Shown here piece after piece: positions 1-53,455 of a stretch of 64,000 nt of DNA. Location of the stretch: assembly GCA_964349945.1 (NCBI GenBank), contig CAYGIH010000002.1, forward strand, positions 125,492 through 189,491, in the 5' to 3' direction. The position numbers and the translations under genes were made by a program. Position 1 is the first letter of the stretch. Each line of letters starts with the position of its first letter. This stretch comes from an uncultured Candidatus Saccharibacteria bacterium (GTDB lineage Bacteria; Patescibacteriota; Minisyncoccia; Phycocordibacterales; Zambryskibacteraceae). Below the pieces are notes generated by a model. That model did no database searches. It was not told the DNA's origin and worked only from the letters and a program-made list of their open reading frames with translations.

Positions 1-1494
1 CATAATATTATTGCCTTTAAAAAAACTGCAGAATCTTTGGAAGTGGCAATGCTTGATACAGAAGACCTTACAGCTATAGATTTTGTGAAGAAAAAAGTAG
101 GTTTAAGAATTTTACCAAGGCTTACAGACAACGAGTCTATGAAGTGGGCCTTACTTTCATATCAAAAAAGTCTAAAAGCTGAATTCGGAGATATCATTCA
201 AAAAGAAGTCGGGTCTATTAAAGCTATAAATGACAATCCAGATGGTGAGACGGAGATTGAGGGCGATTTGAAAAAACTTGCAGAAGATGTGCCTGTAGTC
301 AGAATAGTAGATACTCTTCTTAAGCACGCCATTATTCAAGATGCATCGGATATTCACATTGAACCAGAAGAAGGTCAGGTGTTGGTTAGGTACAGAATTG
401 ATGGTCTACTCCATGATGCGATGGTTTTACCGAAAACTACTGCCGCAGGAATCACTGCTAGGATTAAAGTTTTGTCTAATTTAAAACTAGACGAAAAGAG
501 AGTGCCTCAAGATGGTCGCTTTAAAATTGATATGAATGGAGAAAAGGTTTCTTTTAGAGTTTCTACACTCCCTACTTATTATGGAGAGAAAACAGTAATG
601 CGTTTGCTCAGAGAAAATGTTTCAGGGTTCACATTAGAAGGACTTGGCTTTCATGGGTGGGGATTATCAGAAATACACAAAGCCATAAAATATACTACCG
701 GCATGATTCTTACCACTGGCCCAACTGGTTCAGGTAAAACTACTACTCTTTATACAATTTTGGACATTGTGAACACTCCAGACGTGAATATTTCCACCAT
801 TGAGGATCCGATTGAATATCAAATGAAAAGAATAAATCAAACTCAAGTTAGACCTGATATTGGTTTCACTTTTGCTTCGGGGCTACGAACTCTCGTAAGA
901 CAGGATCCAGATATCATTATGGTGGGGGAGATCAGAGACAATGAAACGGCTGCCCTTTCAGTTAATGCAGCCCTTACTGGTCACTTGGTTCTTTCTACTT
1001 TGCACACCAACTCTGCTGCAGGTGCAATCCCGAGACTTCTTGATATGAAAGTTGAACCATTTTTGCTGGTTTCTACAGTAAATATTGTTGTAGCTCAAAG
1101 ACTTATCAGAAAATTATCTGCTAATAAAGAAAAATATTTTTTGAATAAAGAGGAAATAAAATCTTTAAGTACAATCGTAGATCTCGATAGGATGCTCGAT
1201 TTGTTAAAGGCAGAAAATTTAATTGACAAGAAGGCTACTTGGGATAAGGTGCCGTTTTATAAACCAAAGCCCAGTGTCGACAGCGTGGATGGTTATCAAA
1301 GCCGTATAGGGATACACGAAGTTTTGAAAATGACTGATACAATTAGAAATTTAGTTATGAAAGGAGCTACTGCTCATGAGATAGAAGAACAAGCTAAAAA
1401 AGATGGCATGATGACTATGATAGAAGACGGGATATACAAGGCTGTTCAAGGAGTGACAACTATCGAAGAAGTTCTTAGAGTAATTTCAGAATAA
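1..1494 (+). CDS. pilB: Type IV pilus assembly ATPase PilB/GspE, 5'-truncated at window edge
   Basis: Walker A GPTGSGKTTT, Asp box, His box (LSTLHTNSAAG). The reading frame is open from nt 1 upstream of the M at 37, so the N-terminus lies outside the window. Confidence 0.85.
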   Translation, partial: HNIIAFKKTAESLEVAMLDTEDLTAIDFVKKKVGLRILPRLTDNESMKWALLSYQKSLKAEFGDIIQKEVGSIKAINDNPDGETEIEGDLKKLAEDVPVVRIVDTLLKHAIIQDASDIHIEPEEGQVLVRYRIDGLLHDAMVLPKTTAAGITARIKVLSNLKLDEKRVPQDGRFKIDMNGEKVSFRVSTLPTYYGEKTVMRLLRENVSGFTLEGLGFHGWGLSEIHKAIKYTTGMILTTGPTGSGKTTTLYTILDIVNTPDVNISTIEDPIEYQMKRINQTQVRPDIGFTFASGLRTLVRQDPDIIMVGEIRDNETAALSVNAALTGHLVLSTLHTNSAAGAIPRLLDMKVEPFLLVSTVNIVVAQRLIRKLSANKEKYFLNKEEIKSLSTIVDLDRMLDLLKAENLIDKKATWDKVPFYKPKPSVDSVDGYQSRIGIHEVLKMTDTIRNLVMKGATAHEIEEQAKKDGMMTMIEDGIYKAVQGVTTIEEVLRVISE

Positions 1495-1497
1495 TTT

Positions 1498-2712
1498 ATG
1501 ATTAAATATTCTTATCAAGCAAAAGATAAAGACGGCAAGACCTATACAGGTTTTCATGAAGCGAATAATAGAATAGAACTATATTCAAAAATTAGAGAAG
1601 AAGGAGGATCAGTTCTTTCGGTGAAAGAATTAAAAGGAAGTATTGATTTGGATACTATTATCGCGAGTATTTTTGGTGGAGTTAAGACGCATGACAAGAT
1701 ACTTTTAGCTCGTAATCTTGGTTCAATGATCAAAGCGGGGTTAGCGGTAACAAGGGCGCTTGCAGTAATGGAAAAACAAACAAAAAACAAAATACTTGCT
1801 GCTTTGTTGAGTGACCTATCAAACGATGTAAGTAAGGGGGAGACATTATCTGATTCTATGAAGAAACGACCACATGTGTTTTCTCAATTGTTTGTATCCA
1901 TGGTCAAAGCTGGGGAGGAGTCAGGCAACCTTGCTGATTCCCTTGAAATCGTGGCTAGTCAATTAGAAAAGTCGTATACATTAGTGAAAAAAGTACGTGG
2001 GGCATTAATATATCCAACGGTGATTCTCTTCGCAATGGTGGTAATTGCCATTCTCATGCTTATTTATATGGTCCCAACTCTTACTGCAACATTTAGTGGT
2101 ATAGGGATAGATCTTCCTCTTTCAACCAAAATTATTATTTATGTGAGTGATTTTTTAGTTAAACATACCTTTATTGTTGTCAGTGGATTGATCGGCATAA
2201 TTACACTCATTATTATGTTTTTTAGAACTACTACCGGTCATAAAACATTGGATTTGCTTACTATTAAACTCCCAGCCATTGGCACAATCACAAAGGAAAT
2301 ACAGAGTGCGAGGACAGCCAGAACGCTCTCATCACTATTATCAGCGGGTGTAGATGTTGTTGTTGCTATTGGGGTAACTATAGATGTTGTTCAAAATACG
2401 TATTATAAGAAAGTTTTAGAAGAAATAAGGGTTGCTATCCAAAAAGGGGAGCTTATGTCTGGAATATTTGAAAAAAATGATGATTTATACCCCCCGTTTG
2501 TTGGGGAAATGGTGGCAGTGGGAGAGGAGACAGGAAAGATTTCTGGCATGCTTTTAGAGGTAGCGGATTATTATGAAAAAGAAGTTGATGAAGCTACAAA
2601 AGATTTGTCTACAATTATTGAGCCAGTGCTTATGATTATTATCGGATTGGGTGTAGGTATTTTTGCTGTCTCAATGCTTGCCCCTACGTATTCTATGGTT
2701 AATTATATTTAA
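1498..2712 (+). CDS. pilC: Type IV pilus inner-membrane platform protein PilC/GspF
   Basis: About 400 aa with two GspF repeats and 3 TM segments, immediately after pilB. Stop/start overlap with the next gene. Confidence 0.85.
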   Translation: MIKYSYQAKDKDGKTYTGFHEANNRIELYSKIREEGGSVLSVKELKGSIDLDTIIASIFGGVKTHDKILLARNLGSMIKAGLAVTRALAVMEKQTKNKILAALLSDLSNDVSKGETLSDSMKKRPHVFSQLFVSMVKAGEESGNLADSLEIVASQLEKSYTLVKKVRGALIYPTVILFAMVVIAILMLIYMVPTLTATFSGIGIDLPLSTKIIIYVSDFLVKHTFIVVSGLIGIITLIIMFFRTTTGHKTLDLLTIKLPAIGTITKEIQSARTARTLSSLLSAGVDVVVAIGVTIDVVQNTYYKKVLEEIRVAIQKGELMSGIFEKNDDLYPPFVGEMVAVGEETGKISGMLLEVADYYEKEVDEATKDLSTIIEPVLMIIIGLGVGIFAVSMLAPTYSMVNYI

Positions 2713-12124: not shown

Positions 12125-12727
12125 TTATTGTATTCGTTTATAATTTTCTTCTATTTTCTTCCAATTTATATTGGCAAAAAAATCTTCCACGTATTGTTTC
12201 TTACCACTTGGGAGATAATCTGCGACGTATGAATGTTCCCACATATCAAGACCCAAAATCATCTCACACCCGTTTAATTGTCCAAGGTGTTGTTCGTCTA
12301 CCCAAGAGATCAATAACTCTTGGTCTTTCTTATCGTACCAAAGTACTGCCCAACCAACACCACGAGTAAGGGCGAGAGCTTTAATATTAGAAAGAAAAGT
12401 CTCTACAGAACCGAAAGTTTCAGAAAGTTTCTTTGAAAGTTCACTTTCTGGATTGAGGGCCTTGGCACCATCAGATAGAGAGTCAAAATACACTTCATGG
12501 TTTCTCATACCATTGTATTCAAAAGAGAATCTACGTCCTAATTCTCCAACTACATAAGGCGCGAAAGCATCTTGAGTTGCATATCCTTGATATTCAGGAG
12601 TCTTTTCTAATATGGAGTTCGCATTCTTCACATAACCAGTATAGAGCTTTAAATGTTCTTCGATAGTCTTTGCGCTAATTCCTTTTAATTCCCCAATATT
12701 AAATTTTTTTTCTTCAAATGTAGTCAT
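12125..12727 (-). CDS. Fe/Mn superoxide dismutase
   Basis: DMWEHSY signature near the C-terminus. N-terminal His ligands sit in EEHLKLYTGYV. Confidence 0.8.
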   Translation of the reverse strand: MTTFEEKKFNIGELKGISAKTIEEHLKLYTGYVKNANSILEKTPEYQGYATQDAFAPYVVGELGRRFSFEYNGMRNHEVYFDSLSDGAKALNPESELSKKLSETFGSVETFLSNIKALALTRGVGWAVLWYDKKDQELLISWVDEQHLGQLNGCEMILGLDMWEHSYVADYLPSGKKQYVEDFFANINWKKIEENYKRIQ

Positions 12728-12747
12728 ATGAGAATTATACTATAGGT

Positions 12748-13602
12748 ATGAGTTCTCTAAGACAAAGCTGGAAGAAGCTATTTTTGGTTTTTTTGGTCAT
12801 TTCTAACCTAGTAGTATGGACAGCCGTATATGAGAGGCAACCAGGGAATCTCCATGTTTATTTCTTCGATGTGGGTCAAGGGGATTCAATCTTCATAGAT
12901 TCTCCAACACATGGGAGGGCGCTCGTAGATGGGGGGCCAAATACAAAAGTACTCACAGAGTTAGGAAAAATTTTACCTTTCGGAGATAGACGAATAGATG
13001 TGGTCATAGAAACACATCCAGATAAAGATCATATCGGTGGATTGACTGATGTGGTCTCAAGGTACTCTGTAGGGAAATTTTTGGAACCTGGAGTGGAATC
13101 ACCGAGTAAGGTTGATGATAACTTGAGGGCTGAATTAAAAAATAAAAATATTGAAAGTATTTTGGCACGAAGGGGAATGGTAGTGAATTTTAATGATGGA
13201 GTCAGACTCGAAATACTTTTCCCTGACCGAGATGTATCCAAATGGGAAACGAATCAGGCATCGGTGGTGGCTAAGTTAGTTTATGGAGAGAAATCCTTCC
13301 TTCTCACTGGAGATTCTCCAAAAAAATCTGAATATATGATTATGGAATACGGCAAGAAAGAATTGAAGAGTAATGTATTGAAAGTGGGGCATCACGGCTC
13401 AAAAACTTCTACAGCAATCGCCTTTGCAAGCTTAGTTCGACCGGAGTACGCGGTTATCTCAGCAGGTTTAAACAATAGATATGGTCATCCAAATCAAGAA
13501 ACTTTAGATACTTTAAATAAATTAGGTGTAAAAATCCTTTCAACCATAGAAAAAGGCACTATAGAATTTGAAACAGATGGAAAGAATTTAATTTTAAAAT
13601 AA
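12748..13602 (+). CDS. ComEC C-terminal metallo-beta-lactamase-fold domain protein (stand-alone)
   Basis: N-terminal TM helix, then the MBL fold (FFDVGQGDS, HPDKDHIGG, GHHGS). Confidence 0.7.
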   Translation: MSSLRQSWKKLFLVFLVISNLVVWTAVYERQPGNLHVYFFDVGQGDSIFIDSPTHGRALVDGGPNTKVLTELGKILPFGDRRIDVVIETHPDKDHIGGLTDVVSRYSVGKFLEPGVESPSKVDDNLRAELKNKNIESILARRGMVVNFNDGVRLEILFPDRDVSKWETNQASVVAKLVYGEKSFLLTGDSPKKSEYMIMEYGKKELKSNVLKVGHHGSKTSTAIAFASLVRPEYAVISAGLNNRYGHPNQETLDTLNKLGVKILSTIEKGTIEFETDGKNLILK

Positions 13603-18332: not shown

Positions 18333-18402
18333 TAGTAAAATAAGTTTTCAACAAAAAAACGGCTTAACAAGGCTGTTTTTTGTTATATTTGAGGCTAAAT
18401 GC

Positions 18403-18431
18403 TTGACATTTAATACTGACTGTGCTATTAT
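18403..18431 (+). promoter_or_regulatory. Near-consensus sigma70 promoter TTGACA-N17-TATTAT driving high-GC cassette gene
   Basis: TTGACA at 18403-18408, 17-nt spacer, TATTAT at 18426-18431. GGAGG SD at 18475-18479. Confidence 0.6.
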
Positions 18432-18485
18432 ACACAAGTACAGATGTCCTTTCCCACTACAACGGCCTAGCGCCGGAGGTATCCC

Positions 18486-19106
18486 GTGAACCGGTTTGAG
18501 AAGCTCCTGAACGCCCTGTTGGCGAAGATCGAGTCCGTCCGCGCCCTGTGCGCTGACATCCCGACCGACGTGGCGACGAAGGTGAGCGAAGAGCTCGCCC
18601 ACGTCGTGAAGGTTCTGCGTGACCCGCAGGCCATCACGACCGGTCGCAACGTCGGCTACGTCGGCGCCCTCGCGGAGGAGGCTCTGAGGGATCTGCGCTC
18701 GAACGAGCGTCGGTTCCTCATCACCCTCGGCACGATCAACGGTCTGCGAGAGCGGATCGGTGCGCTTCACCCGCAGACGCCCATGAAGATGGGGGTCTCG
18801 GACGCCATCACGCTCTACGACATCTCGCGCCAGAATCATGACACGGGGACCGCTGTGCTCCGCACGGAGTACGACGGCATCCTGTTCCTCATGGAGGAGG
18901 CCGAGACCCAGTCCCGGCTTCTGCGCTCGCGCGAAGCGGACGAGCGGATTCGCGAGACCATCGCGAACGGCGTCGTCGGCGCGATCAAGCCGGCCAAGCG
19001 CGGTCGGGCTGCAGGCAAGAGACTTGCTGATGCTGAACGTCGTTCCCAGATGAAGGGCAAGACGAACGGCGGTGGCAAGAACAACCGCAAGCAGAAGACG
19101 GCGTAG
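18486..19106 (+). CDS. High-GC (about 65%) hypothetical protein with basic C-terminal tail; GTG start
   Basis: GGAGG, 6 nt, then GTG. Private promoter and terminator. Composition is foreign to the genome. The antisense ORF 18348-19274 is judged to be a GC artefact. Confidence 0.55.
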   Translation: MNRFEKLLNALLAKIESVRALCADIPTDVATKVSEELAHVVKVLRDPQAITTGRNVGYVGALAEEALRDLRSNERRFLITLGTINGLRERIGALHPQTPMKMGVSDAITLYDISRQNHDTGTAVLRTEYDGILFLMEEAETQSRLLRSREADERIRETIANGVVGAIKPAKRGRAAGKRLADAERRSQMKGKTNGGGKNNRKQKTA

Positions 19107-19107
19107 T

Positions 19108-19168
19108 CGGGGTTCGCCCCACGAAAAGTTCCCACGGATTCCCGTGAGCACTATTCGTGGGGCTTTTT
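19108..19168 (+). terminator. Compound hairpin terminator (GGGGTTCGCCCC ... CCCCACGAA/TTCGTGGGG + T-run)
   Basis: Nested GC hairpins ending in CTTTTTG. Confidence 0.55.
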
Positions 19169-19224
19169 GTTTTCCTAAAAATGTGTAATATAGCCAGAGG
19201 CCCCATAACCAGAGGAGTATGCGC

Positions 19225-19575
19225 ATGTATAATGGTCCGGATTCTGATGTGCAAGGAGTGCCAGTAGTTCCCACTGCATCAGGCCTGTCGAAGGTTCATC
19301 ACAGCGATCTTACGGGTCTTACCCAACCAACGATCAGAGAAGTGGATGCCATGGTGGCCCACTTCAAGGGATGGAAGATGCCATCCCTTGTGGTCGCTCT
19401 TGCTGAGACGGGTTTCGTACATCGTGCGGCATGGTCGCACGGGGAAACCAAGGTTACTCAGGATGAACTCGATCGCGCGAATCGCTGTCTCTCGAAGCAC
19501 ATCACTGGTCAAATCAGGATGAATCGGGAGTACATCTGGTTTGCCAAGACGGGCGGATCAAATCCGGTGAACTAA
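19225..19575 (+). CDS. Mid/high-GC hypothetical protein, second gene of the island
   Basis: GAGGAG SD 7 nt upstream of ATG 19225. Followed by terminator AGGCCCC-AAC-GGGGCCTTTTTT. Confidence 0.45.
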   Translation: MYNGPDSDVQGVPVVPTASGLSKVHHSDLTGLTQPTIREVDAMVAHFKGWKMPSLVVALAETGFVHRAAWSHGETKVTQDELDRANRCLSKHITGQIRMNREYIWFAKTGGSNPVN

Positions 19576-27671: not shown

Positions 27672-27752
27672 AAAGAAGTATTATAGCTAGATAATACTTC
27701 AACTTGCATAAAAGGGCCCTATTTAGGGCTCTTTTATGTATTATAAATGTCC

Positions 27753-27781
27753 TTGACTTTATACATCAAGTATGCTATTAT
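27753..27781 (+). promoter_or_regulatory. Consensus sigma70 promoter TTGACT-N17-TATTAT
   Basis: TTGACT at 27753-27758, 17-nt spacer, TATTAT at 27776-27781. Preceded by terminator AAAAGGGCCCTATTTAGGGCTCTTTT. Confidence 0.6.
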
Positions 27782-27835
27782 AGACAGGTACGCTCTTTAG
27801 TTATACTCCCTTTAACGTATTACCACGGAGTAGCC

Positions 27836-28408
27836 ATGACGGTTGCGATGATGCAGGACCAGAGCTCGTCCGAAGGCCTTTGCCTCAAGGACGTGAACAC
27901 GGTGCTGGTGAATTTCAACTTCACCAACCCGCGAGTTGTGCCGCAGGGTCTGCGACATGTCGAACGCAAGAGCGAGCGCGAGCTCCTCGAGCGTCGCAAG
28001 CAGCAGGGCGTTGGTACCGGCCATCAGGTCGTGAACAATGCTCAGCAGACGCAGGTCGCGATGCTCCGCAAGGGTCTCTCGTCGAATGGCTTCCACCTCG
28101 TGGACAGCCACACGACCGAGATCGCGCGTCCGGGCCGCCAGAAGAAGTACCGGGTCGTGCTGCAGTTCCGGCGTATGGAGGCCGGCGAACAGGCTCCTGA
28201 GATTCCTTCGGAAGCTCTCGCCGATCTGCGCAGTCTCGCCACTGACGCTGTCTGGTCCGGCCACGTCTGGTCGAACCCGAACGGCGTGGCGGCGGTGGAC
28301 CTTGTCCAGCGCCAGCCGGGCACCCTTCCGAAGCATGCGTTCGTCACCCGCAAGGGGTGGATCGTGGCGGAGCCGGTGAGCCAGCTCGTTGCGGAAGACG
28401 GGGAGTAA
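27836..28408 (+). CDS. High-GC (about 63%) hypothetical protein, 190 aa
   Basis: GGAG SD at 27827-27830, ATG at 27836. Terminator at 28436-28462. The antisense ORF 27812-28480 is rejected as a GC artefact. Confidence 0.55.
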   Translation: MTVAMMQDQSSSEGLCLKDVNTVLVNFNFTNPRVVPQGLRHVERKSERELLERRKQQGVGTGHQVVNNAQQTQVAMLRKGLSSNGFHLVDSHTTEIARPGRQKKYRVVLQFRRMEAGEQAPEIPSEALADLRSLATDAVWSGHVWSNPNGVAAVDLVQRQPGTLPKHAFVTRKGWIVAEPVSQLVAEDGE

Positions 28409-43815: not shown

Positions 43816-44061
43816 CTACTCCTTATTGATGCGCGTTAGGCGTGGGTCGTTCGCTCGAATGTTGAGCACCCAATCGTAGCTCAAGATGAAGATCATGCAG
43901 CCGGCGACCATGATGAGCAAGCTGATGATGGTTGCTCCGATGGGATCGGCGACATTCCCGGTGATGCTGTGACCCAAGCAATCCGCACCGAGTACCGCCA
44001 TGCACATGGCCGGAAAACCGACGAGGAAAAGCAGGAGCAGTGACTTCACAAACACGGACAT
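43816..44061 (-). CDS. Small 2-TM membrane protein (paralog of 43129-43359)
   Basis: Perfect minus-strand promoter TTGACA (44127-44132)-N17-TATAAT (44104-44109). GAGGT-cacg-ATG at 44061. Terminator repeat R2 at 43767-43803. Confidence 0.6.
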   Translation of the reverse strand: MSVFVKSLLLLFLVGFPAMCMAVLGADCLGHSITGNVADPIGATIISLLIMVAGCMIFILSYDWVLNIRANDPRLTRINKE

Positions 44062-44179
44062 CGTGACCTCGGCGTGAGAGAACAGGAAGATACTCTACCT
44101 TATATTATATACCTATTTATCCTATTTGTCAAGTAGAAAATATGCCTAATATACTAGGTTTATTTGCTACAATAAATCA

Positions 44180-44479
44180 ATGACATCACCCGAACAAAAT
44201 TTTTTTAATGACAAGGATATACACGAAGTAGTTATAAACGGTTTACCTGAAGTAGAAGATTTAAAAAAGATTGATAAGGAGTTAGATAAACAAGACGCTC
44301 TTGAGCAAATGTTTGGTGGGAGTATTAAAGAAGATGATAGAGCAGGGAAACAAAGAGCAGAAAGTTCGTGGGACAGATTTTTTAAAAAAGGCTGGCAGAA
44401 AATTAAACCTTCAAAAGCAGAAATAATAGAAGATACAGAGATTACCAGAGCCCAGAGACAAAGCCCAAGGAATCAATAA
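44180..44479 (+). CDS. Hypothetical charged protein
   Basis: 99 aa at native GC. Ends at the bidirectional hairpin 44484-44507. Confidence 0.4.
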   Translation: MTSPEQNFFNDKDIHEVVINGLPEVEDLKKIDKELDKQDALEQMFGGSIKEDDRAGKQRAESSWDRFFKKGWQKIKPSKAEIIEDTEITRAQRQSPRNQ

Positions 44480-44511
44480 ATTAAAAATCCCCAATTGGGG
44501 ATTTTTAATTA

Positions 44512-44905
44512 TGGTGGAGATGCCGGGAATCGAACCCGGGTGCAAAGAGAGATTCAAGTGAAGTCTACGCGAGGTAGGATGCTTCATTTAGTTCGAACAG
44601 AAAGATACAAAACAAACGAAAGCTCTTTCAATTCTATTCCCTTAATCTGAGAGTCAGTCGAGAAACACAAACTCCGAGTCTCTAGTTATTACGCACGCTT
44701 ATGAGTCAGAGGCACCCATCATAAGGCACGGTCGCACGCGAACTGTTAAGCTCGAGCGTAAGCGAACTGGAAATCATTCACACCGAAGTATGGTGATATC
44801 CTTGCAACAGTTTTGTTTGCAATTGTTTTTGAAGCGGATTAAAGAGTCACTTCGGCTCTCTCGCGCATCACTCGAATGAATCTCCTTGTCTAGGCCGATC
44901 ATCCC
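44512..44905 (-). ncRNA. ssrA: tmRNA (SsrA)
   Basis: 3' end ...CCGGGTTCGATTCCCGGCATCTCCACCA (T-arm plus acceptor plus CCA). 5' GGGGATG pairs with the 3' acceptor and gives a G3:U70 wobble. Internal tag ORF ends ...FAYARA-TAA. Adjacent to smpB. Confidence 0.8.
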
Positions 44906-45004
44906 CCTAAAACATTTTTGTATACAAAAATGTTCGGGCGATCGATTTGTAAACAAATCGATTTAGCCATAAAGCATCCTTGTATAAATGTTCGGGCGAA
45001 CAAA

Positions 45005-45274
45005 TTAATGGCTCGCCCTACTTTGTTTGTATTTATCTAGTATTTTCTTCTTTTCTCTCGCGCCCCACAAACTTTTTAGAAATCTTTCTCTATTGAACGC
45101 TTCAGTCTTATCTTCAAATTTTTCACTATGGATAAGACTGAGCGGTCTGCGAGATTTAGTTGCTTGCACGGCTCCATTGTTGTGTCGCACTAATCTTTTC
45201 TCAAGATTAGTGGTGCAACCAACATAAAGTTTGTGGTCTTTAGAACTTAGAAGGATATAAACAAAGTAGGGCAT
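45005..45274 (-). CDS. GIY-YIG nuclease superfamily protein (YhbQ-like)
   Basis: FVYILLSSKDHKLYVGCTTNLEKRLVRHN GIY-YIG motif. 89 aa. Confidence 0.75.
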   Translation of the reverse strand: MPYFVYILLSSKDHKLYVGCTTNLEKRLVRHNNGAVQATKSRRPLSLIHSEKFEDKTEAFNRERFLKSLWGAREKKKILDKYKQSRASH

Positions 45275-45284
45275 ACCATACTTA

Positions 45285-45722
45285 TTATTTCAATTTACGA
45301 TTCAGGTCTCTCTCGACATCGCGTTTCTTGATGGATTCGCGTTTGTCGAATTTTTTCTTGCCTCGCGCAATGGCGAGGTCAAGCTTTAGAAACCTACCTT
45401 TATTATACACCGAAAGAGGCACGATTGTCAAGCCTTTAGTCCCTTCAGCTTTTTCTAATTCACCAAGCTCTGCCTTGGTTAGAAGTATTTTCCTTGCCCT
45501 AGTTGATTCATAGTCCGCAGGGGCGTTTTTTGGCTGATAGGCTGGGATGTCAGCATTGAGGAGGAAGGCTTCTTTACCTCGGATGGTCACATAAGCCCCA
45601 GAGAGGGAAATGTGCCCAGCCCGAACAGACTTCACTTCTTGGCCAGTTAGCTCGAGCCCAGCCGTGAACTTCTCAAGGATTTCATAATCAAATGTCACTT
45701 TTCTGTTCTGTGCGAGTGCCAT
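45285..45722 (-). CDS. smpB: SsrA-binding protein SmpB
   Basis: Conserved SmpB core (GLELTGQEVKS, SGAYV). Confidence 0.9.
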   Translation of the reverse strand: MALAQNRKVTFDYEILEKFTAGLELTGQEVKSVRAGHISLSGAYVTIRGKEAFLLNADIPAYQPKNAPADYESTRARKILLTKAELGELEKAEGTKGLTIVPLSVYNKGRFLKLDLAIARGKKKFDKRESIKKRDVERDLNRKLK

Positions 45723-45767
45723 GGGCTAATCATAGCAAAGTATCTGTTTTTAGGTATAATATGCCCC

Positions 45768-47717
45768 ATGACAACACCTAAAATACCCAAGAATAAAGAG
45801 AAAAAGAGCGCAGGGAAGTCGTTTAAGCTTGTGATAAAAAAGGGTGCAGGAAGTGCGACCAAGGGGCCAATTAATCAGGGCATTATGGCTATCCTGATTT
45901 TTCTTATACTCATCACCATATATTCGATGGTGAGTGATGTTTCGAAGAAAAAGGAAGTCATCTCTATCTCTGAACTTTCTCAAAACATCCAAAAATCTCT
46001 AGTCACTTCTATTGCTGTGAAGGGAGACAACCTCGATATTGTTTATAAGGATGGGGCAGAGAAAACTTCCAAGAAAGAAGAGGGAACCCCCATCACCACT
46101 ACTTTCAAAAATTATGATGTCACACCAGAAGCCCTTTCTGCAGTGAAGATAGATGTACAGAATAATCAAGGGCTTGGATATTGGGTGCTCAACCTCCTTC
46201 CAATTCTCCTCCCAATCGGCTTCATACTTTTCTTCATTTGGTTTTTATCTAGACAGGTGAAAGGTGCGGGTATGCAAGCGATGTCCTTTGGACAATCAAA
46301 GGCGCGCATGACTCTCCCAGATGATAAGAAAAATCTAGTTACCTTCAAGGACGTGGCTGGGGCGAAGGAAGCCAAGGAAGAACTCACAGAAATAGTAGAC
46401 TTCCTAAAAAATCCTAAGAAGTTTCTGGATATTGGTGCCCGTATCCCAAAAGGTATCCTGCTCATGGGTGCACCGGGGACAGGTAAGACTTTGCTCGCTC
46501 GAGCGGTGGCTGGGGAAGCAGGTGTGGCTTTCTTCTCCATCTCCGGTTCTGAATTCGTAGAGATGTTCGTGGGTGTTGGAGCATCACGAGTGCGTGATTT
46601 GTTTGATATGGCCAAGAAGTCGAGTCCTGCGATAATCTTCGTCGATGAGATAGACGCAGTTGGAAGAGTACGTGGAGCAGGAATGGGTGGAGGCAATGAT
46701 GAACGAGAGCAAACTTTGAACCAAATCCTTGTGGAGATGGATGGCTTCGAACCAAATGAGAAGGTGATAGTCATGGCGGCCACTAACCGTCCAGATGTTC
46801 TTGACCCAGCTTTGCTTCGTCCTGGACGCTTTGATAGACGAGTGACTTTGGATCTTCCGGACAGAGGTGATCGTGAAGAGATTTTGAAAATCCATGCACG
46901 ACAGAAGCCTTTTGCAGAAGATGTTCATCTCCCTCTTATTGCTGAACGAACACCTGGATTTTCTGGTGCAGATTTGTATTCACTTATGAATGAAGCGGCT
47001 ATCCTCGCAGCCAGAGAGAATAGAACCAAAGTCAGTCAGTTTGATTTAATTCGCTCCATAGAGAAGGTGATGCTTGGTCCAGAACGAAGGTCACATATCC
47101 TTTCTAAGAAAGAAAAGGAACTCACTGCTTACCATGAAGCAGGGCACGCAATTTTGGCCTCGGTTCTTCCTTATGCTGACCCAGTGCACAAGATTTCTAT
47201 AATTGCCCGCGGTCGAGCAGCCGGATATGTCCTCAAACTTCCACTTGAAGATACCAAACTCCAATCCAAGAAAGAATTTATAGATGACATCACCGTGGCC
47301 CTCGGAGGATATGTGGTGGAGAAAATGATTTATAAAGATTTGACCACTGGTCCATCAAACGATCTGCAAGTTTCTACTGCTCTTGCTCGAGATATGGTGA
47401 CCAAATATGGGATGAGTGAGAAACTTGGACCAATAGCTCTCGAAGGTGCGGGAGGACGAGTGCTCTTTGGTTCTGGAGTAGAAAACAAAGAATATTCTGA
47501 GAGAGTCAGTGCAGAAATAGATGCAGAAGTGTCTAAGATTATGAACGAAGCGATGAAGAAAGCCGAAGAAATCATCAAACAACATGAGAATTTGCTTGAG
47601 GTCATAGCCAAAAGATTAGTTGTGGTAGAGACAATAGAACAAAAGGAATTTGAAGAACTACTCATAGCCAACGGAGTCACTCCAAAGAAAAAGAAAGACA
47701 TCGAACATCAAGCTTAG
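45768..47717 (+). CDS. ftsH: ATP-dependent zinc metalloprotease FtsH
   Basis: AAA Walker A GPPGTGKT, SRH, HEAGH zinc motif, N-terminal TM pair. Confidence 0.95.
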
Positions 47718-48009
47718 TATAATTATCTGGTGTTAAGGAAAACTATAATCATCGGTGTTGCGGTTTATGCGGTCTCTATGTTTCTTGGATTTTTTGTCTA
47801 TAGAAATGTTTATTTGGCCCAGTCCTTGGAAGGGACACAAGATTATCTGGCTTCAGTGTTTTTGGCCTTGAGAAATTTATTTTTTTAAATAACAAAAAAC
47901 CATTTTTCTTTGCACGATAGTTTTCTACTGAAAACTTCTCTGCTCAAGCCAAGCTTTCAGCAAGGCACGAAAAATGGTTTTTTTGTATTACTTCTTTATG
48001 TCGTCCATA

Positions 48010-48213
48010 TTACATCTTTGCCTCACAAGCCTTACAACAATTCTTGTGATTAAATACTTCGTACAATGCAGAAATGCCCACTAAGACGTAAACAATCCTA
48101 GCTACTGTGGTGCCTACATACGTGGCAAGATCCCATCCACCTACGAGAGCTACAAGCAACCAATTCAAACCTCCGATAACCAACAAAACAAATGCAATTT
48201 TATGAAGCTTCAT
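48010..48213 (-). CDS. DUF378-family small membrane protein
   Basis: KIAFVLLVIGGLNW...IVYVLVGISALY matches the DUF378 pattern. Confidence 0.6.
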   Translation of the reverse strand: MKLHKIAFVLLVIGGLNWLLVALVGGWDLATYVGTTVARIVYVLVGISALYEVFNHKNCCKACEAKM

Positions 48214-48343
48214 ATTTTAATTAACAATTAAAACAATTATTTATAAACCTTGTTAATTATAGCATCCCCTAGACTTTGGAAATTTTTTTTCCACAACCTA
48301 TTTATAAGAAAAAATGCCGAGCAACTACGCTCGGCATCTAGTG

Positions 48344-49066
48344 TCATCCCCAACCACGGTGTCGTTCGATGACTCGGTCCACATACTCTACGACAAAAAT
48401 GAACAAGTCGTACAGAAAGTGAACCAAGATTGCCGCCGGCAACCCGTATTTGAACATGAGGTAAAAGAAAAACATGCCACCGAACCAGGAATTTATCATG
48501 CCGATGATACCTTGGTACGCATGACCATTCCTGAAGTCTCCATTCACGCTGATAACTGCAGCACCCACAGCCCACCCGAAGCCATTCATGAGGATTGGCT
48601 TCAGATAGCCTAGAGTAAAGAAGTTGGCAACTGGGATGAAGAAGTGTGTGTAGAACCATTCGGCGATTCCAAAGCCGGCCCAGCCGAAGAATAGCCAGTT
48701 AACGATTTTCAGAGATACCATAGCTCCGAAGAAAAGAATCCAACGGAAGCAGATTTCCTCCATGACACCGGCCTTGATGCTGACGAGGAGACCATTGAGA
48801 AGGTGATCCTCAGCATAACGGTTTTCCTCACGGCTGTTCCTTGTGAAGACTGAAACGAGCGTGGTGATGCCCGTGCCCCACAAGAGCAGTATCCATGAGT
48901 GCTTGACCGCTTCAATCAGAGAGCCACCAATCTTCCAGAAATGGAAGAAATCAAATGGGATAGTCTGTGGGCGGATTGCCTTAACGATGGTGATGAACAC
49001 CAACGTCGATATGGCAATAGAAATGTAACTCCGCTTCTTTTCTTCGGCGGTTATTCTTCGTGACAC
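48344..49066 (-). CDS. CPBP-family intramembrane glutamic endopeptidase (CAAX protease/Abi domain), high GC, GTG start
   Basis: Motifs EExxxR (EEICFR), FxxxH (FRNGH), HxxxD (HFLYD), multi-TM. Minus-strand promoter TTGACT (49155-49160)-N17-TAATAT (49132-49137). GGAGG-6nt-GTG. Terminator GCCGAGC-GTAGTT-GCTCGGCATTTTTT (minus) at 48310-48340. Confidence 0.7.
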   Translation of the reverse strand: MSRRITAEEKKRSYISIAISTLVFITIVKAIRPQTIPFDFFHFWKIGGSLIEAVKHSWILLLWGTGITTLVSVFTRNSREENRYAEDHLLNGLLVSIKAGVMEEICFRWILFFGAMVSLKIVNWLFFGWAGFGIAEWFYTHFFIPVANFFTLGYLKPILMNGFGWAVGAAVISVNGDFRNGHAYQGIIGMINSWFGGMFFFYLMFKYGLPAAILVHFLYDLFIFVVEYVDRVIERHRGWG

Positions 49067-49419
49067 ACATCCTCCGTGGAAATAAGTCAGGGAACTGGTG
49101 AATCAGTGAGATTCCAGCGAGTCTAATGTGAATATTAGCACATAATATGTAAAAAGTCAAGATAAATCCACTTGTCGTCACATGCTTTTAACGTGTCGTC
49201 ACAAGTATTTTTCTGCTGAAAAATCTCGCGACCCCGACTCAGCCCGTCGGCTTCTGTCTCGGACAAGTAAAAAACCGTGTCCCACAAGCTTTTTTACTTG
49301 TCCGCCCTCTTGGAATCTTCACACCTAGGAAACCCACGGTTTTCCCAATCCTTCCTTCACGGGAGACCAGATGTTCTCCCGACCCCTCTCCGTTCGAATC
49401 CAAGAGGATTCACTTCGTG

Positions 49420-49493
49420 TCCGCCCTCTTGGATTCGAACCAAGGACCCCAGAGGTATAAGCTCTGTGCTCTAACCAACTGAGCTAAGGGCGG
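49420..49493 (-). tRNA. tRNA-Ile (anticodon UAU)
   Basis: Cloverleaf: acceptor CCGCCCT/AGGGCGG, D GCTC/GAGC, anticodon stem CAGAG/CTCTG with loop CTTATAC, T arm CTTGG-TTCGAAT-CCAAG. No encoded CCA. Confidence 0.7.
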
Positions 49494-49523
49494 AGTAGGA
49501 ATACTATATAGCAAAATAGACTC

Positions 49524-51680
49524 TTATTCAAAATGCACTTTTTTAATCTGACTTTCTAGATAATTTTTTAGGTTTTTATGATCGTTGAGGGTTGGATCTT
49601 CTTCTATTATTTTTGTAGCTTCAAGGCGGGCGGCCTCAACCATTTTGATATTTTTGATAGCTTCCATCGCAAGGTCACTCACTCCCCATTGTTTACCTCC
49701 ATAGAGTTCGCCTGAACCTCGTTGCTTGAGGTCAAACTCTGCGAGTTCAAAGCCATTTTTGGCAGTCTTGAGGGCATTTAGCCTTTCAATAGTTTTATCT
49801 GTTTTAGAGTCAGCGAAGACAAAGCAGTATGGTTGATGTGTGCCTCGTAGTACTCGTCCACGAAGTTGGTGTAGTTGGGCGAGGCCAAACCGCTCTGCGC
49901 CTTCGATGATGATGAGTGAGGCATTGACTACGTTCACTCCTATTTCTACAACCGATGTGGCGACCAAAATATCTAATTTTTTATCTTTGAACTCTAGCAT
50001 TATTTTTTCTTTCTCCGTTGGCTTCATTTTGGAATGCAAAATACCGATGTTGTATTCAGGGAAGATATTTCTTTTTAATCTTTTAGCCTCTTCTTTAACT
50101 GATTTAACCAATATGGCCGTTTCTTTCTCCGGATCTGGTTCATCTATGCGTGGACAAATTACATAAAGTTGTCTGCCTGCTTGCATCTCCTCACGTATCT
50201 TTTCATAAGTATTTTCTCTCTTATCTTTAGTGACTATTTCTGTGATAATTTGTTTGCGTCCTTCGGGCATTTGATCAAGGAGGGAGAGATCAAGGTCGCC
50301 GTAGAAGGTGAGGGCAAGGGTGCGAGGAATAGGTGTGGCTGTCATAGAGAGCAAATGTGGGACTATGCCTTCTTTACTTATTAATTTTTGCCTTTGAGCT
50401 GTACCGAATCGGTGTTGTTCATCAATGATGGCAAGGGCTAGATGTTTAAACTTCACACTTTTTTGAATAAGAGCATGTGTGCCTATAAGTATGGCTATTT
50501 CACCATTCGCCACCCACTTGAGGAGTTGTGGGCGAGAGATGTTTGTCCAACCTTCTGGGTTGAGTTTAGAAGGAAATTTTCTACAGCCTGTTCCAGTGAT
50601 GAGAGCAATGTTTATAGGTAGGTGTTTGAAATATTTTATAAATGATTCAAAGTGTTGCTGAGCGAGGATTTCTGTGGGGACCATATAAGCGGTTTGAAGG
50701 GTGCCGAAACTCTGGCCCTTAGGTTTGGAAGTAGTGACAGCATAAGCAGCGGCTGCGGCCACAGCAGTTTTACCTGAACCCACATCTCCTTCAAGGAGTC
50801 TACTCATAGGATATCCTCGTCGAAAGTCGTCCAAAATATGTTGAATAGTTTTATATTGTGCCTCGGTCGCTTTGAAGGGAAATCTTTCTATAAACTTTTC
50901 CATCTCATCAAAATTTTTGTCTATCACAAATGATTTTTGCTCTTTGAATTCTTGTTTTATTTTTTGTTTTTCTAATTGAATGAAAAATATTTCTTCAAAA
51001 GCAAACCTTTTTCGCGCAGATTCAGCATCAGCCAAACTGTGTGGAGTATGAATCCATACTAGAGCGGTGCGGAGAGTGGGGAGATTATATTTATTAATAA
51101 TTTCCTCTGGGATTGGGTCAACGAGAGTATCTAAAGCGCCAGATGTGAAAATATTTTGAATTTTATGATAAATCCAATTAGAAGTGACGCCTCGTGTCTC
51201 TGGATAAACTGGATACAAAGTATGCTTTTCATTTTTAGTGCCAAACAATGAATCCCCAATATCAATAGGTAGTTTGGGTATAGTTTCAATTTTTGGATTA
51301 GAAAAATATAATTCACCTTTGCGCTCACTAATTTTCCCCTCTACACGAACAAACGAATCTTCGGTGAGCATTTTGGCGAGGTATGCTTGGTGGAACCAAA
51401 CTATTTTTATTCTCCCAGTCTCGTCTGTTACCCAAGCTTCAGACATGGGGATTCTAGTCCTAAATCCTTTGGAAGTTTTTAGTCCACTGATTTGTCCAAA
51501 TACTACAGCTTCAGTGCCTTTGGTTAAGGTGTTCACATATGTCACTTTGGCTGTATCTCCGTATCTGGTAGGAAAGTAGTAGAGTAAATCCTCCACGGTT
51601 AATACGCCTATTTTCTTTAGAGCATTGGCCTGTACGGGTAAGATACGAAATACAGATGAGAGGTTATCTCTAATATTCAT
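49524..51680 (-). CDS. recG: ATP-dependent DNA helicase RecG
   Basis: Wedge domain plus helicase motifs (GDVGSGKT, DEQHRFG). 718 aa. Confidence 0.9.
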   Translation of the reverse strand: MNIRDNLSSVFRILPVQANALKKIGVLTVEDLLYYFPTRYGDTAKVTYVNTLTKGTEAVVFGQISGLKTSKGFRTRIPMSEAWVTDETGRIKIVWFHQAYLAKMLTEDSFVRVEGKISERKGELYFSNPKIETIPKLPIDIGDSLFGTKNEKHTLYPVYPETRGVTSNWIYHKIQNIFTSGALDTLVDPIPEEIINKYNLPTLRTALVWIHTPHSLADAESARKRFAFEEIFFIQLEKQKIKQEFKEQKSFVIDKNFDEMEKFIERFPFKATEAQYKTIQHILDDFRRGYPMSRLLEGDVGSGKTAVAAAAAYAVTTSKPKGQSFGTLQTAYMVPTEILAQQHFESFIKYFKHLPINIALITGTGCRKFPSKLNPEGWTNISRPQLLKWVANGEIAILIGTHALIQKSVKFKHLALAIIDEQHRFGTAQRQKLISKEGIVPHLLSMTATPIPRTLALTFYGDLDLSLLDQMPEGRKQIITEIVTKDKRENTYEKIREEMQAGRQLYVICPRIDEPDPEKETAILVKSVKEEAKRLKRNIFPEYNIGILHSKMKPTEKEKIMLEFKDKKLDILVATSVVEIGVNVVNASLIIIEGAERFGLAQLHQLRGRVLRGTHQPYCFVFADSKTDKTIERLNALKTAKNGFELAEFDLKQRGSGELYGGKQWGVSDLAMEAIKNIKMVEAARLEATKIIEEDPTLNDHKNLKNYLESQIKKVHFE

Positions 51681-51700
51681 ACCCTATATTGTGTACTAAT

Positions 51701-52138
51701 TTATTTCGCTGCGACAGTCACGTAGCCACCAAGGTTAGGTTGCATATGGTTGTGGTAACCCCAAACTCCCATTTTGTTGAAGGTGAAGACAAATGTTTTT
51801 TCTCCCTTATACTCTGTCTTGTATTGGTCAAATTGTGGGAAGAAAGTGTGTCCTGGGTGTGGGTTGGAGGCAACGGACATTGCTTGAGATGATTCGTTGA
51901 TGAATGTGACAGATTCACCTTGCTTCACAGTAATACCTTCAGGAACGAAACCTTTGTCTGTATAGGTAACAGTTTTAATCTCTGGAACGGTTGGAGCAGC
52001 TTCAGTAGCTGAAGCTGTATTTGGATTAGGAGTTAGTTCAGGTTTGCTGTCTGTTGGTGCGTATTTCCAAACCAAAAACCCAACGACTAATATTGCCAAA
52101 ATGATTATAATTTCTTTCTGCTTCATTTTTTTATTCAT
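51701..52138 (-). CDS. Secreted cupredoxin-like domain protein (no Cys ligand)
   Basis: Signal/TM anchor. His-rich beta-sandwich-like C-terminus (SNPHPGH, GYHNH). Weak call. Confidence 0.35.
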   Translation of the reverse strand: MNKKMKQKEIIIILAILVVGFLVWKYAPTDSKPELTPNPNTASATEAAPTVPEIKTVTYTDKGFVPEGITVKQGESVTFINESSQAMSVASNPHPGHTFFPQFDQYKTEYKGEKTFVFTFNKMGVWGYHNHMQPNLGGYVTVAAK

Positions 52139-52214
52139 TAAATAACTAATTTACGTATACATTATTCTAGCACAATATGAAAAGTCAAAGAAATATGCTA
52201 ATTTAGGCTGTACT

Positions 52215-52303
52215 GGAGACGTGTCAGAGTGGTCTAACGTACCTCTTTGCTAAAGAGGCAAGCCTCTTAAAGGGCTTCGAGGGTTCGAATCCCTCCGTCT
52301 CCG
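52215..52303 (+). tRNA. tRNA-Ser (anticodon GCU), class II with long variable arm
   Basis: Acceptor GGAGACG/CGTCTCC, anticodon stem CCTCT/AGAGG with loop TTGCTAA, variable arm AAGCC...GGCTT, T arm GAGGG-TTCGAAT-CCCTC. Terminator at 52321-52345. Confidence 0.75.
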
Positions 52304-52544
52304 CAAATATAAAAAATACAGGCTTCTGCCTGCATTTTTTATATTCTGCGTTGAGGTAGGAGGGAGAGAAAGACGGAGCACGACGGTGCGAGTCGGGGTA
52401 GCGGAAAATTTCAGTAGAAATTTATCCGTGACCGAATCCCTCCGTCTCCGCAAATTGAAAGAAAAATGAGTGGTGGGTTGTATTAAGGATAGAAAGACAA
52501 TAGAAATCTAAAATCTTTCTTAATTTAACTTCTAACCTTAAAAC

Positions 52545-52916
52545 ATGAAAAAAACAACAATAGGATTAACCTTAATGGTATTTGTGATTGGGCTAACAGC
52601 TATTTCAGCCAGCTCAGCCATGGCTTATAGAGGAGACCCAGCAGTAAAAGGGCCAAATTATTCAGTAGAACGTCACACTGCGATGGCCAAGGCACTTGAG
52701 ACCAAGGATTATACAGCTTGGAAACTACTTATGGGGAACAAAGGCAGAGTAACTCAGATAATCACCGAAGCCAATTTCGCCAAGTTTGCAGAAGCTCACA
52801 ACCTTGCCCTACAAGGGAAAACAGCCGAAGCTCAAAAGATCCGTCAGGAACTTGGACTGGGAACACAAAATAGTCCAAAGGGAAACAGAGGTTGTATGAT
52901 GGGTGTATGGAAATAG
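52545..52916 (+). CDS. Secreted small hypothetical protein (signal peptide)
   Basis: N-terminal signal peptide. 123 aa. Confidence 0.4.
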   Translation: MKKTTIGLTLMVFVIGLTAISASSAMAYRGDPAVKGPNYSVERHTAMAKALETKDYTAWKLLMGNKGRVTQIITEANFAKFAEAHNLALQGKTAEAQKIRQELGLGTQNSPKGNRGCMMGVWK

Positions 52917-53455
52917 GAGAGATAGAAAAACTTTCTGACGAGGAGATAGTAGAAAAGGTTTGTTTGAACAACCGAGACCTTTATGCTGTCATAATCGAAA
53001 GGTATAAAAATAAGCTTTTGAGGTATACAACAAACTTGGTACATGATGAAGACAAAGCGAGTCACATCACCCAAGATTCCTTAGTGAAAGCGTATATTAA
53101 CCTCAAAGGTTTTGATGTAAAAAAGAAATTTTCTAGCTGGATATACCGTATTGCTCACAATGAGGCAATGAATGTGGTTAAGAAATACGAGAAAGAAATA
53201 CAAATACCAGATGATTTTGACTATGAGAGTGAGGAAAACATAATAGAAAATTATGAGAAAAAAGAAGTCATTATACTTGTGGAAAAGTGTCTAAATTCTA
53301 TGCCTATAATTTATTCAGAACCACTAAGTCTTTATTATCTAGATAACAAATCGTATGAAGAAATAAGTGAGATTCTAAGGATTCCTATGGGCACAGTGGC
53401 TACTCGGATTAGCCGAGCGAAGAAATTAATGAAACATATATGTCAAAAGAACTAA
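52892..53455 (+). CDS. ECF-type RNA polymerase sigma factor
   Basis: Sigma region 2 (YRIAHNEAMNVVKKY) and region 4 HTH (YEEISEILRIPMGTVATRISRAKK). The true start is probably M at about 52907. Confidence 0.75.
   Translation: MYDGCMEIGEIEKLSDEEIVEKVCLNNRDLYAVIIERYKNKLLRYTTNLVHDEDKASHITQDSLVKAYINLKGFDVKKKFSSWIYRIAHNEAMNVVKKYEKEIQIPDDFDYESEENIIENYEKKEVIILVEKCLNSMPIIYSEPLSLYYLDNKSYEEISEILRIPMGTVATRISRAKKLMKHICQKN

Follow-up and report, generated by a model that had tools for sequence, protein, structure and literature searches.

The DNA considered in this study, called the window throughout, is the whole of a 64,000-nt stretch (positions 125,492 to 189,491 of contig CAYGIH010000002.1, assembly GCA_964349945.1) from an uncultured bacterium deposited as Candidatus Saccharibacteria. 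Between ftsH and a tRNA-Ile gene it carries an open reading frame (ORF) for a CPBP-like intramembrane protease homologue and another for a small DUF378 membrane protein, with hairpin-forming elements on either side of the pair. A preliminary description of the region took the two genes for one acquired island bounded by the hairpins. The hairpins, repeats and genes that it listed were all found where it had placed them. The region, however, is probably a mosaic of three layers, ancestral, repeat and recent, and not one island, and the repeat elements within it, which fall into families linked to tRNA and transfer-messenger RNA (tmRNA) genes, weigh more than the CPBP gene.

I would reconstruct the three layers as follows. 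The ancestral layer would comprise recG, tRNA-Ile(UAU), DUF378 and the convergent ftsH, with a bidirectional terminator common to DUF378 and ftsH. To the repeat layer would belong an element that I call B, after the terminator hairpin of tRNA-Ile, a degenerate B in the loop of the DUF378/ftsH hairpin, and a second kind of element, A, at the tRNA's 3' end. The recent layer would be a segment of about 0.9 kb, rich in GC at third codon positions (GC3), which carries the CPBP gene and was put between B and the DUF378 promoter. Its route would most likely have been illegitimate or microhomology-mediated recombination at a tRNA-linked hotspot, with 10 nt from the end of B left behind in duplicate.

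The relatives compared with the window are the recG loci of 80 genomes and 80 metagenome contigs, with about ±10 kb of sequence covered per genome. They are referred to by locus number (L207 and so forth) where they have to be told apart.

The CPBP insert and its flanks

The closest relative, L207, has a RecG 89% identical to that of the window and a tRNA-Ile gene 100% identical to the window copy. In L207 the tRNA-Ile is followed directly by a hairpin and the right-hand element B (90% identity), then by 24 nt, and then by the promoter and gene of DUF378. Element A and the CPBP gene are both missing, and there is only one copy of the sequence TGTGACGACA, of which the window has two. The locus is layered: compared with L207, the window carries two independent and discrete insertions, one of 119 nt (49300-49418) and one of about 0.9 kb with the CPBP gene.

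The larger insert (48308-49184, minus strand) is lineage-specific and contains CPBP as its sole gene, together with a promoter-like site (49132-49160, minus strand), putatively functional, found by consensus scan as TTGACT-17-TAATAT with TG upstream, and a hairpin like an intrinsic terminator (48312-48339, minus strand; a 12-bp stem followed by a run of T). By BLAST the span without homology extends over 48276-49184, where L207 has the 24 nt. The CPBP gene was sought at the recG loci of the 80 genomes and found in none. The preliminary description had rightly called it GC-rich: its GC content is 0.485 and its GC3 is 0.613, as compared to a mean GC3 of 0.342 (standard deviation 0.099) for the ORFs of the window. 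The gene is compositionally foreign.

DUF378 (48010-48213, minus strand; 67 aa), whose identity holds (PF04070, E = 8.5e-14), has a different standing. It has a conserved extended -10 promoter of its own (TGCTATAAT, 48256-48264), which aligns together with the gene to L207 at 76%, and its GC3 of 0.397 is typical for the window. By tblastn it adjoins ftsH in about 20 genome relatives, none of them with CPBP. DUF378 is an ancestral neighbor of ftsH and lies outside the CPBP insert, so the two genes do not make one island. As compared with other members of its family of two-helix membrane proteins, the window protein is a clear match with nothing unusual about it and no link to CPBP. A candidate for the same pairing elsewhere, a 67-aa gene after the CPBP homologue of L002, encodes a hydrophilic protein without a Pfam match and is not DUF378.

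The hairpin on the left (47888-47989, minus strand), of the type of a bidirectional terminator for DUF378 and ftsH, has arms of 21 nt (47888-47908 and 47969-47989) that are 90% complementary, a loop of 60 nt and a folding z-score of -5.4 to -5.8. The loop is a degenerate copy of B, a variant I call B2, without GGGGUCGC. It was matched by a covariance model built from copies of the right-hand type (47982-47894, minus strand; 21.7 bits, E = 3e-5), and TTTTCTNCTGAAAA occurs within the window at 47921 and 49209 only. The likeness that the preliminary description saw between its two boundary elements is real, both being members of one structured repeat family, B. Their role as boundaries does not survive comparison. 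The left-hand hairpin recurs, nearly identical, after DUF378 in three metagenome contigs (L208 to L210; RecG 78%), and B2 stands at the same DUF378/ftsH site in L021 and L030, in each case in an interval that lacks CPBP; most other relatives have a plain bidirectional terminator hairpin there. The right-hand element, as said, is in L207. Because they are present in relatives without CPBP, the hairpin elements pre-date it. As for the proposed 1.3-kb segment as a whole, its CPBP part is indeed absent from relatives, whereas DUF378 and the hairpin elements are present in some of them.

The preliminary description had also read two copies of TGTCGTCACA upstream of the CPBP gene as the site of a dimeric activator or repressor. 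The sequence (equivalent to TGTGACGACA on the minus strand) has exactly two exact copies, at 49173 and 49194, 21 bp apart; the shuffle expectation with one mismatch allowed is 2.18, so that the pair is not significant alone. The copy at 49194 consists of the 3' base of the last stem of B (P3) plus a copy of the terminal nucleotides of the tRNA, and it is conserved in genomes without CPBP. The second copy (49173-49182, minus strand), an exact repeat, falls inside the CPBP insert, at its upstream edge. L207 lacks this copy, and by its position and sequence it would be a junction duplicate or a remnant of the 3' end of B. The two copies are explained as a local duplication, and a regulatory site seems a poor description of a pair made up of the end of an older repeat and the edge of an insert.

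It is scarcely credible, then, that CPBP and DUF378 entered together as one hairpin-bounded island with a dimeric regulatory site and a role in immunity or abortive infection. It is true that the CPBP gene is foreign in composition and adjoins a tRNA gene, that the two hairpin elements are related, and that the TGTCGTCACA repeats stand just upstream of a promoter-like site. Against this, L207 and L208 to L210 have the hairpins, DUF378 or B without CPBP; one TGTCGTCACA belongs to B and the other is not in L207; and B is common at unrelated tRNA and tmRNA genes as well as in terminator loops. The flanking repeats are thus not special to an island, and the preliminary description had itself named their common occurrence at unrelated terminators as grounds for abandoning its proposal. 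The role proposed for CPBP in bacteriocin immunity or abortive infection finds no more favor: scanning the CPBP cassette turned up no small ORF resembling a bacteriocin or lantipeptide precursor, PADLOC gave no defense-system match for CPBP or DUF378, and the genes around five CPBP homologues are unrelated to one another, with no recurrent neighbor.

The protein itself (48344-49066, minus strand; 240 aa, GTG start) is a divergent homologue of the Rce1-like intramembrane proteases. The three motifs reported earlier are all there: EExxxR as E103-E104-ICF-R108 (EEICFR), FxxxH as F178-RNG-H182 (FRNGH) and HxxxN/D as HFLYD. In an alignment of 33 homologues no variation is seen at E103, E104, R108, F178, H182 or H216, and D220 is conserved in at least 90%. 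The first motif (motif 1 of CPBP) lies, as expected, on a transmembrane helix. An AlphaFold model made from the alignment has a predicted local distance difference test score (pLDDT) of 91, and the predicted fold of the protein is like that of solved CPBP structures, members of which include MmRce1 (4CAD) and Staphylococcus aureus SpdC/LyrA (6U0O). In profile search PF02517 (Rce1-like) is the sole family matched, at 17.4 bits and E = 0.0055, under the gathering cut-off of 22.4. Fifteen of the 33 aligned homologues match PF02517 at E ≤ 0.01 (the best at 1.2e-5), again with no other family matched. NCBIfam gave no match for CPBP, DUF378 or any of the 33, and a profile of the 33-member alignment found nothing among PDB sequences at E ≤ 10. 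The protein has 215 homologues, for the most part unnamed proteins of the Candidate Phyla Radiation (CPR), among Woesebacteria, Kaiserbacteria and Parcubacteria.

I take the window protein to be a divergent CPBP-fold (Rce1-like) protein with its motif set intact. Within the CPBP/Rce1 family at large, it belongs to a subfamily of some 240 aa that is spread across the CPR and has diverged greatly; the majority of its members score under the gathering cut-off, and it has neither an NCBIfam model nor a match among PDB sequences. Most likely it would act as a membrane-embedded protease or as a scaffold for a partner. The known roles of CPBP proteins (immunity, SagB-type scaffold, CAAX processing) are not assigned to it, because neither a bacteriocin nor a two-component system nor a hydrolase partner lies next to it. 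Taken alone the gene is ordinary, a further solo member of its family gained at a hotspot.

Structured repeats at tRNA and tmRNA genes

Element B was recognized as a recurrent element downstream of tRNA-Ile in relatives, and copies were collected first with an nhmmer profile and afterwards with a covariance model (R1). Its core behind tRNA-Ile (49198-49260, minus strand) consists of two stems, P1 and P2, a GGGGUC linker and the stem P3. At its end stand GUGAC and GACA, and these make up the first TGTCGTCACA. The covariance model scores this copy (49278-49179, minus strand) at 85 bits and one behind tRNA-Ser(GCU) (52352-52451, plus strand) at 81 bits. Beyond the window it found 39 matches in the genome loci and 25 in the metagenome loci. 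The copies whose surroundings were examined lie downstream of tRNA-Ile(UAU, GAU), tRNA-Ser(GCU, ACU) and tmRNA genes, and also in terminator loops. Wherever there is an upstream tRNA, B has the same orientation; occasionally a copy lies on the strand opposite to a nearby tRNA (L057, L084). In L084, three tandem B units follow tRNA-Ile (12521-12830), repeating every 109 nt or so; each opens with a copy of the 3' strand of the hairpin, and a fourth B stands upstream of the tRNA-Ile on the opposite strand, as one does in L057.

B is structured, and its structure is strand-specific. The fold is made up of a 3-bp P1 (GAC/GUC), of P2, a hairpin that varies, and of P3 (the hairpin TTTTCTGCTGAAAA), which has 14 bp, is rich in A/U and is based on GUCGC/GYGAC. 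In an alignment of 23 copies with 20 base pairs, 97.4% of the cells are paired, and in 18 of the 20 pairs both partners have changed. Covariation was scored at 0.596, as compared to 0.189 in shuffles (none of 500 reached the observed value) and at most 0.135 when the partners were slid. None of the 23 copies lacks one particular G·U pair, and because this pair is invariant only the tRNA-sense strand has the fold.

The ends of B are tied to the gene upstream. The tail reads GUGAC and then N-ACA, where N matches nucleotide 72 of the tRNA at that locus and is G, C or U according to the genome. The hairpin that precedes B in the window (49260-49304, minus strand; arms 49260-49280 and 49284-49304) is of terminator type and contains the 12-bp palindrome of the preliminary description; in its outer stem a copy of the tRNA terminal GGACAAGU pairs with ACUUGUCC. 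It stands directly after the tRNA in L207 too, and the equivalent stems at other loci covary with nucleotide 72 of the tRNA. A second full B element in the window (52305-52455, plus strand) follows tRNA-Ser(GCU) (52215-52304), with its hairpin at 52309-52348 and its B core at 52371-52433. Before the core there is a degenerate inverted copy, and after it 23 nt that repeat the 3' end and trailer of tRNA-Ser in direct orientation (CGAATCCCTCCGTCTCCGCAAAT); at L049 the corresponding direct repeat is about 43 nt. The conserved B motif GAGACGGAG is complementary to the 3' strand of the tRNA-Ser acceptor.

Element A (49300-49418, minus strand) is the smaller of the two insertions, lying between the 3' end of tRNA-Ile and the hairpin, at a site that is empty in L207. 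It begins with an 11-nt linker, followed by an inverted copy of the T-loop, T-stem and acceptor of tRNA-Ile (49392-49407; 16 of 16 nt) and by a core that is conserved, and it closes with the tRNA 3' end copied in direct orientation (49300-49314). The direct copy makes an exact 15-nt repeat, at 49300 and 49419, where 0.09 would be expected. The preliminary description had passed over both the direct and the inverted copy. Seven further copies of A were found, behind tRNA-Ile, behind tRNA-Ser(ACU) in L007, and with tmRNA-type 3'-end copies in L011 and L021, each carrying the sequence of its local gene in its flanks. The core is nearly invariant across genomes with RecG 65-80% identical and contains a hairpin insert of variable length. 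The inverted copies are genuinely inverted: in L077 the match is at 19 of 19 positions, the non-palindromic T-loop included.

A and B share one plan: a 3' segment X of the target gene, a short loop or terminator, an inverted X', a folded core of 60-90 nt and a direct X. Two other cores were encountered within the same order of X, X', core and X. Family C, which reads GAAGCCCGATTGAGATATTTTAT...ATAAAATATCCAATTGGGGTACTGA-hairpin-TCGAA, is found in L032, L040, L044, L045, L056 and L059, and family D in L074, downstream of tRNA-Ser or tRNA-Ile. L028 has a B core and, between it and the direct repeat, the tail of a C core.

Such copies are in excess at the 3' ends of tRNA and tmRNA genes. Out of 156 genes, 23 have their 3' end copied downstream in direct orientation and 1 has it so copied upstream; an inverted copy lies downstream in 33 and upstream in 8, and the two come in the order inverted, then direct, in 15. 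Many orthologous tRNA genes are empty of elements; about 10-15% of the tRNA and tmRNA genes sampled in one clade carry small, conserved, covarying ones, with inverted and direct copies of the 3' end of the gene itself in their flanks.

A search of Rfam 15 gave no family for A or B (E ≤ 1 over 44000-53000, and only noise at E ≤ 10 over 49150-49430), and likenesses to RNase P, signal recognition particle RNA, ribozymes and TnpB/IscB guide RNAs were considered and dropped as having neither Rfam support nor an associated protein. A phage origin was considered as well. An 18-mer of A had no match in IMG/VR. A 14-mer of B occurs in 120 IMG/VR stretches; those matches are put down to chance, because the covariance model found nothing credible among the 80 loci listed, one match (18 bits) being in DNA of 68% GC. 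No description of A or B was found in the literature on CPR repeats, tRNA-gene integration or folded attachment sites in phage DNA (attP), and the two are apparently undescribed families of structured repeats linked to tRNA and tmRNA genes.

Origin of the repeats

A direct copy of a tRNA 3' end displaced from an intact tRNA gene is a feature shared with islands integrated in tRNA genes. A tyrosine-integrase island in the 3' end of tRNA-Ile might have brought in CPBP and then lost its integrase, leaving scars of its attachment (att) sites and, as arm-type sites, the two TGTGACGACA copies. The 15-nt repeat begins in the T-loop, as in the T-loop class of att sites (the Islander principle, PMC4383910), and in L040 and L043 a longer part of the tRNA, reaching from the anticodon as far as the 3' end, is duplicated. 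The likeness to Islander-type islands extends to the targets (tRNA-Ile, tRNA-Ser and tmRNA) but not to what lies between the repeats, which in A and B is 80-160 nt, without an integrase but including that tRNA segment in inverted orientation. In the window the repeats enclose only the 119-nt A, with CPBP outside them, and L207 separates A and CPBP as two insertions with B in between. A third, degenerate repeat of the tRNA 3' end beyond CPBP was sought, allowing up to 2 mismatches, and none was found; nor does the CPBP segment have flanking terminal inverted repeats or att-type repeats. There is no integrase in the window interval or among the 10 cargo proteins scanned, and no recurring protein near the 43 A and B matches. 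Finally, the same short cores recur at different tRNAs, always with the local tRNA sequence, as a single attP cannot do. I regard arrival by such an island as decidedly improbable.

My own tentative reading, which leaves me slightly more doubtful than confident, is that A and B are non-autonomous insertion elements that act as folded single strands. The model is by analogy. The attC sites of integrons and the attP of the phage CTXphi are known hairpin sites that recombine as single strands. What A and B would share with attC and CTXphi attP(+) is a topology in which a site and its cargo are followed by an inverted site, a structured spacer of about 60-90 nt and a further site, along with stems that keep their structure over their sequence and a fold specific to one strand. 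The single-strand reading is favored because this topology, with a short cargo, is the expected leftover of such an event. The closing stem X':X would mimic the segment of the target gene from the T-loop to the 3' end, as attC or CTXphi attP does. The analogy has its limits: in A and B the cargo between the first site and its inverted copy is only 11-60 nt, a link to IntI or XerCD would be speculative, and the cores are conserved in sequence, whereas the loops of attC are not.

A second comparison is with the small repeats REP/BIME, Correia/NEMIS, RUP and ERIC, which resemble miniature inverted-repeat transposable elements. Like A and B these are short, multi-copy, hairpin-forming and non-coding, often at the 3' ends of genes or at terminators, and variably present between relatives. 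They differ in having fixed terminal inverted repeats and a short fixed target duplication, whereas the flanks of A and B copy the 3' end of the adjacent tRNA or tmRNA gene. No RAYT or transposase is known for A or B.

The main rival to mobile elements is that A and B are functional non-coding RNAs, for example ones processed out of read-through of tRNA and tmRNA precursors or ones acting on tRNA 3' ends, kept by selection, with tRNA-derived flanks upheld by gene conversion or by selection for pairing rather than by insertion. Much of what was described above could be expected of RNAs: the compensatory covariation of B with its invariant, strand-specific G·U, the agreement of orientation with the upstream tRNA when there is one, and the near-invariant core of A, preserved over RecG identities of 65-80% with a variable-length hairpin insert typical of structured RNAs. 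Other features fit it less well. Element A offers a clean pair of filled and empty sites with an exact 15-nt duplication; presence at orthologous tRNA genes is patchy; L084 has its tandem B units, and copies occur in terminator loops and on the opposite strand (L057, L084); most copies come after terminator-like hairpins, and no Rfam family matches. On balance I think an RNA function somewhat unlikely.

The repeats might instead be by-products of palindrome growth, with template switching during replication at terminator hairpins copying the tRNA 3' end first inverted and then direct. The varying lengths of the duplications would fit, as would nested palindromes of the form X-loop-X'-core-X and stems that extend terminator hairpins into the tRNA (L045). 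As the sole cause it is improbable, leaving unexplained how conserved, covarying cores (A, B and C) come to be shared across tRNAs and across genomes with RecG 62-89% identical. Palindrome growth by template switching may nonetheless contribute.

Several points weigh against the account preferred here, of a layered locus with elements that insert as folded single strands. No recombinase or integrase was found near the A and B copies or in the interval cargo (10 cargo proteins scanned with Pfam within the roughly ±10 kb covered per genome). Covariation and the G·U pair suit a functional RNA as well as they suit folded single-stranded DNA, and the usual position of B after a terminator-like hairpin makes its transcription uncertain. 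With lengths between 4 and 43 nt, the duplications are untidy for one site-specific mechanism. On the side of the recent layer, the CPBP protein scores under the Pfam gathering cut-off, and Foldseek and PDB sequence searches gave no match; the route by which the gene arrived is conjectural; and a possible TTAWAA duplication at both ends of the insert, spotted by eye, is A/T-rich and could be due to chance.

It is a bolder step to take A, B, C and D together as a class of elements not described before, about 80-160 nt long and integrase-less, that fold as single strands and insert at tRNA and tmRNA genes with duplication, and I consider that claim rather unlikely as it stands.

The recG–ftsH interval

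RecG relatives put the organism in Parcubacteria/Paceibacteria, close to Zambryskibacteria. The order recG, tRNA-Ile(UAU), a variable stretch of 0.45-8 kb, ftsH and smpB is kept in about 60 of the 80 genome relatives. In the window the interval is anchored on the left by recG (49524-51680, minus strand; Pfam RecG_wedge, DEAD and Helicase_C) and on the right by ftsH (45768-47717, plus strand; Peptidase_M41, AAA and AAA_lid_3), which is convergent with DUF378. The tRNA-Ile(UAU) gene (49419-49493, minus strand; ARAGORN and Rfam) is a fixed resident, found in every recG–ftsH interval examined (L007 to L086), though its strand and position vary. The remaining cargo consists nearly entirely of singletons (bPH_2, DUF2784, ribonucleotide reductase, vault-like, NUDIX, HD_3), and the gap beside tRNA-Ile is a genuine hotspot of gene flux. 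The ten cargo ORFs scanned with Pfam, the larger or most recurrent ones, comprise these kinds, HTH/LAGLIDADG-like proteins and two without a Pfam match. Among 56 ORFs near the 43 A and B matches (not Pfam-scanned), no protein cluster recurs besides the anchors.

Some relatives bear on how the hotspot works. L040 and L043 contain partial duplications of tRNA-Ile, from the anticodon to the 3' end, and these, together with the varied strand and position of the gene, suggest repeated inversion or integration at tRNA-Ile. In L020, L023, L026, L051 and L074 an ORF of about 220 aa abuts tRNA-Ile; the protein, with an HTH_23 domain at its N-terminus and also a LAGLIDADG-like motif (LAGLFLYWGEGGK), may be a free-standing homing endonuclease that could add to the hotspot. 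One ENA contig (L288; ena:ERZ27247817 k141_504357) is 99.96% identical to window positions 49414-51825, through recG and tRNA-Ile, and departs wholly from the window 5 nt past the tRNA, continuing with a membrane protein, an energy-coupling factor S-component and a ribonucleotide reductase. Its tRNA-Ile has a G-to-A change in the 3' strand of the acceptor, giving a hybrid-like C4:A69 mismatch. L288 may be a strain-level recombinant with its breakpoint in the 3' part of the tRNA, which would agree with the variable orientation of tRNA-Ile among relatives, or it may be an assembly chimera.

Other observations concern the neighborhood at large. The interval of L020, a Parcubacteria genome, includes an ORF of 837 aa (92-2605, minus strand) with a Major Vault Protein shoulder, Vault_3 and SPFH domains. 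In the window, an 89-aa protein consisting only of a GIY-YIG domain (45005-45274, minus strand) is encoded between smpB and the tmRNA gene, an order that recurs in at least seven relatives (L021, L042, L049, L054, L056, L062, L085). A hydrophobic ORF of 52 aa (47730-47888, plus strand) right after ftsH is matched only in contigs of the same organism; in L209 the end of ftsH coincides with the hairpin, and whether the ORF is a gene is uncertain. Two further ORFs (27704-28408, plus strand, and 18348-19274, minus strand) are strongly atypical, with GC of 0.59, GC3 of 0.72 and 0.57, respectively, and no Pfam match. They may be more foreign DNA or non-coding artifacts.

The genomes of CPR bacteria (Patescibacteria) are tiny and thought to be poor in mobile elements. 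If A and B are mobile, they would indicate an unknown mechanism of insertion that recognizes T-arm sequences of tRNAs; if they are RNAs, they constitute new families of structured RNA with a link to tRNA and tmRNA genes. Mobile or RNA alike, they account for many of the odd hairpins beside tRNAs in such genomes, and their covariance models can be used on complete genomes and metatranscriptomes. Were the integrase-less class to prove true, it would represent a new mode of mobility aimed at the tRNA and tmRNA genes of CPR bacteria, one that would help to make tRNA-linked intervals such as recG–ftsH hotspots for the gain and loss of single genes, CPBP among them.

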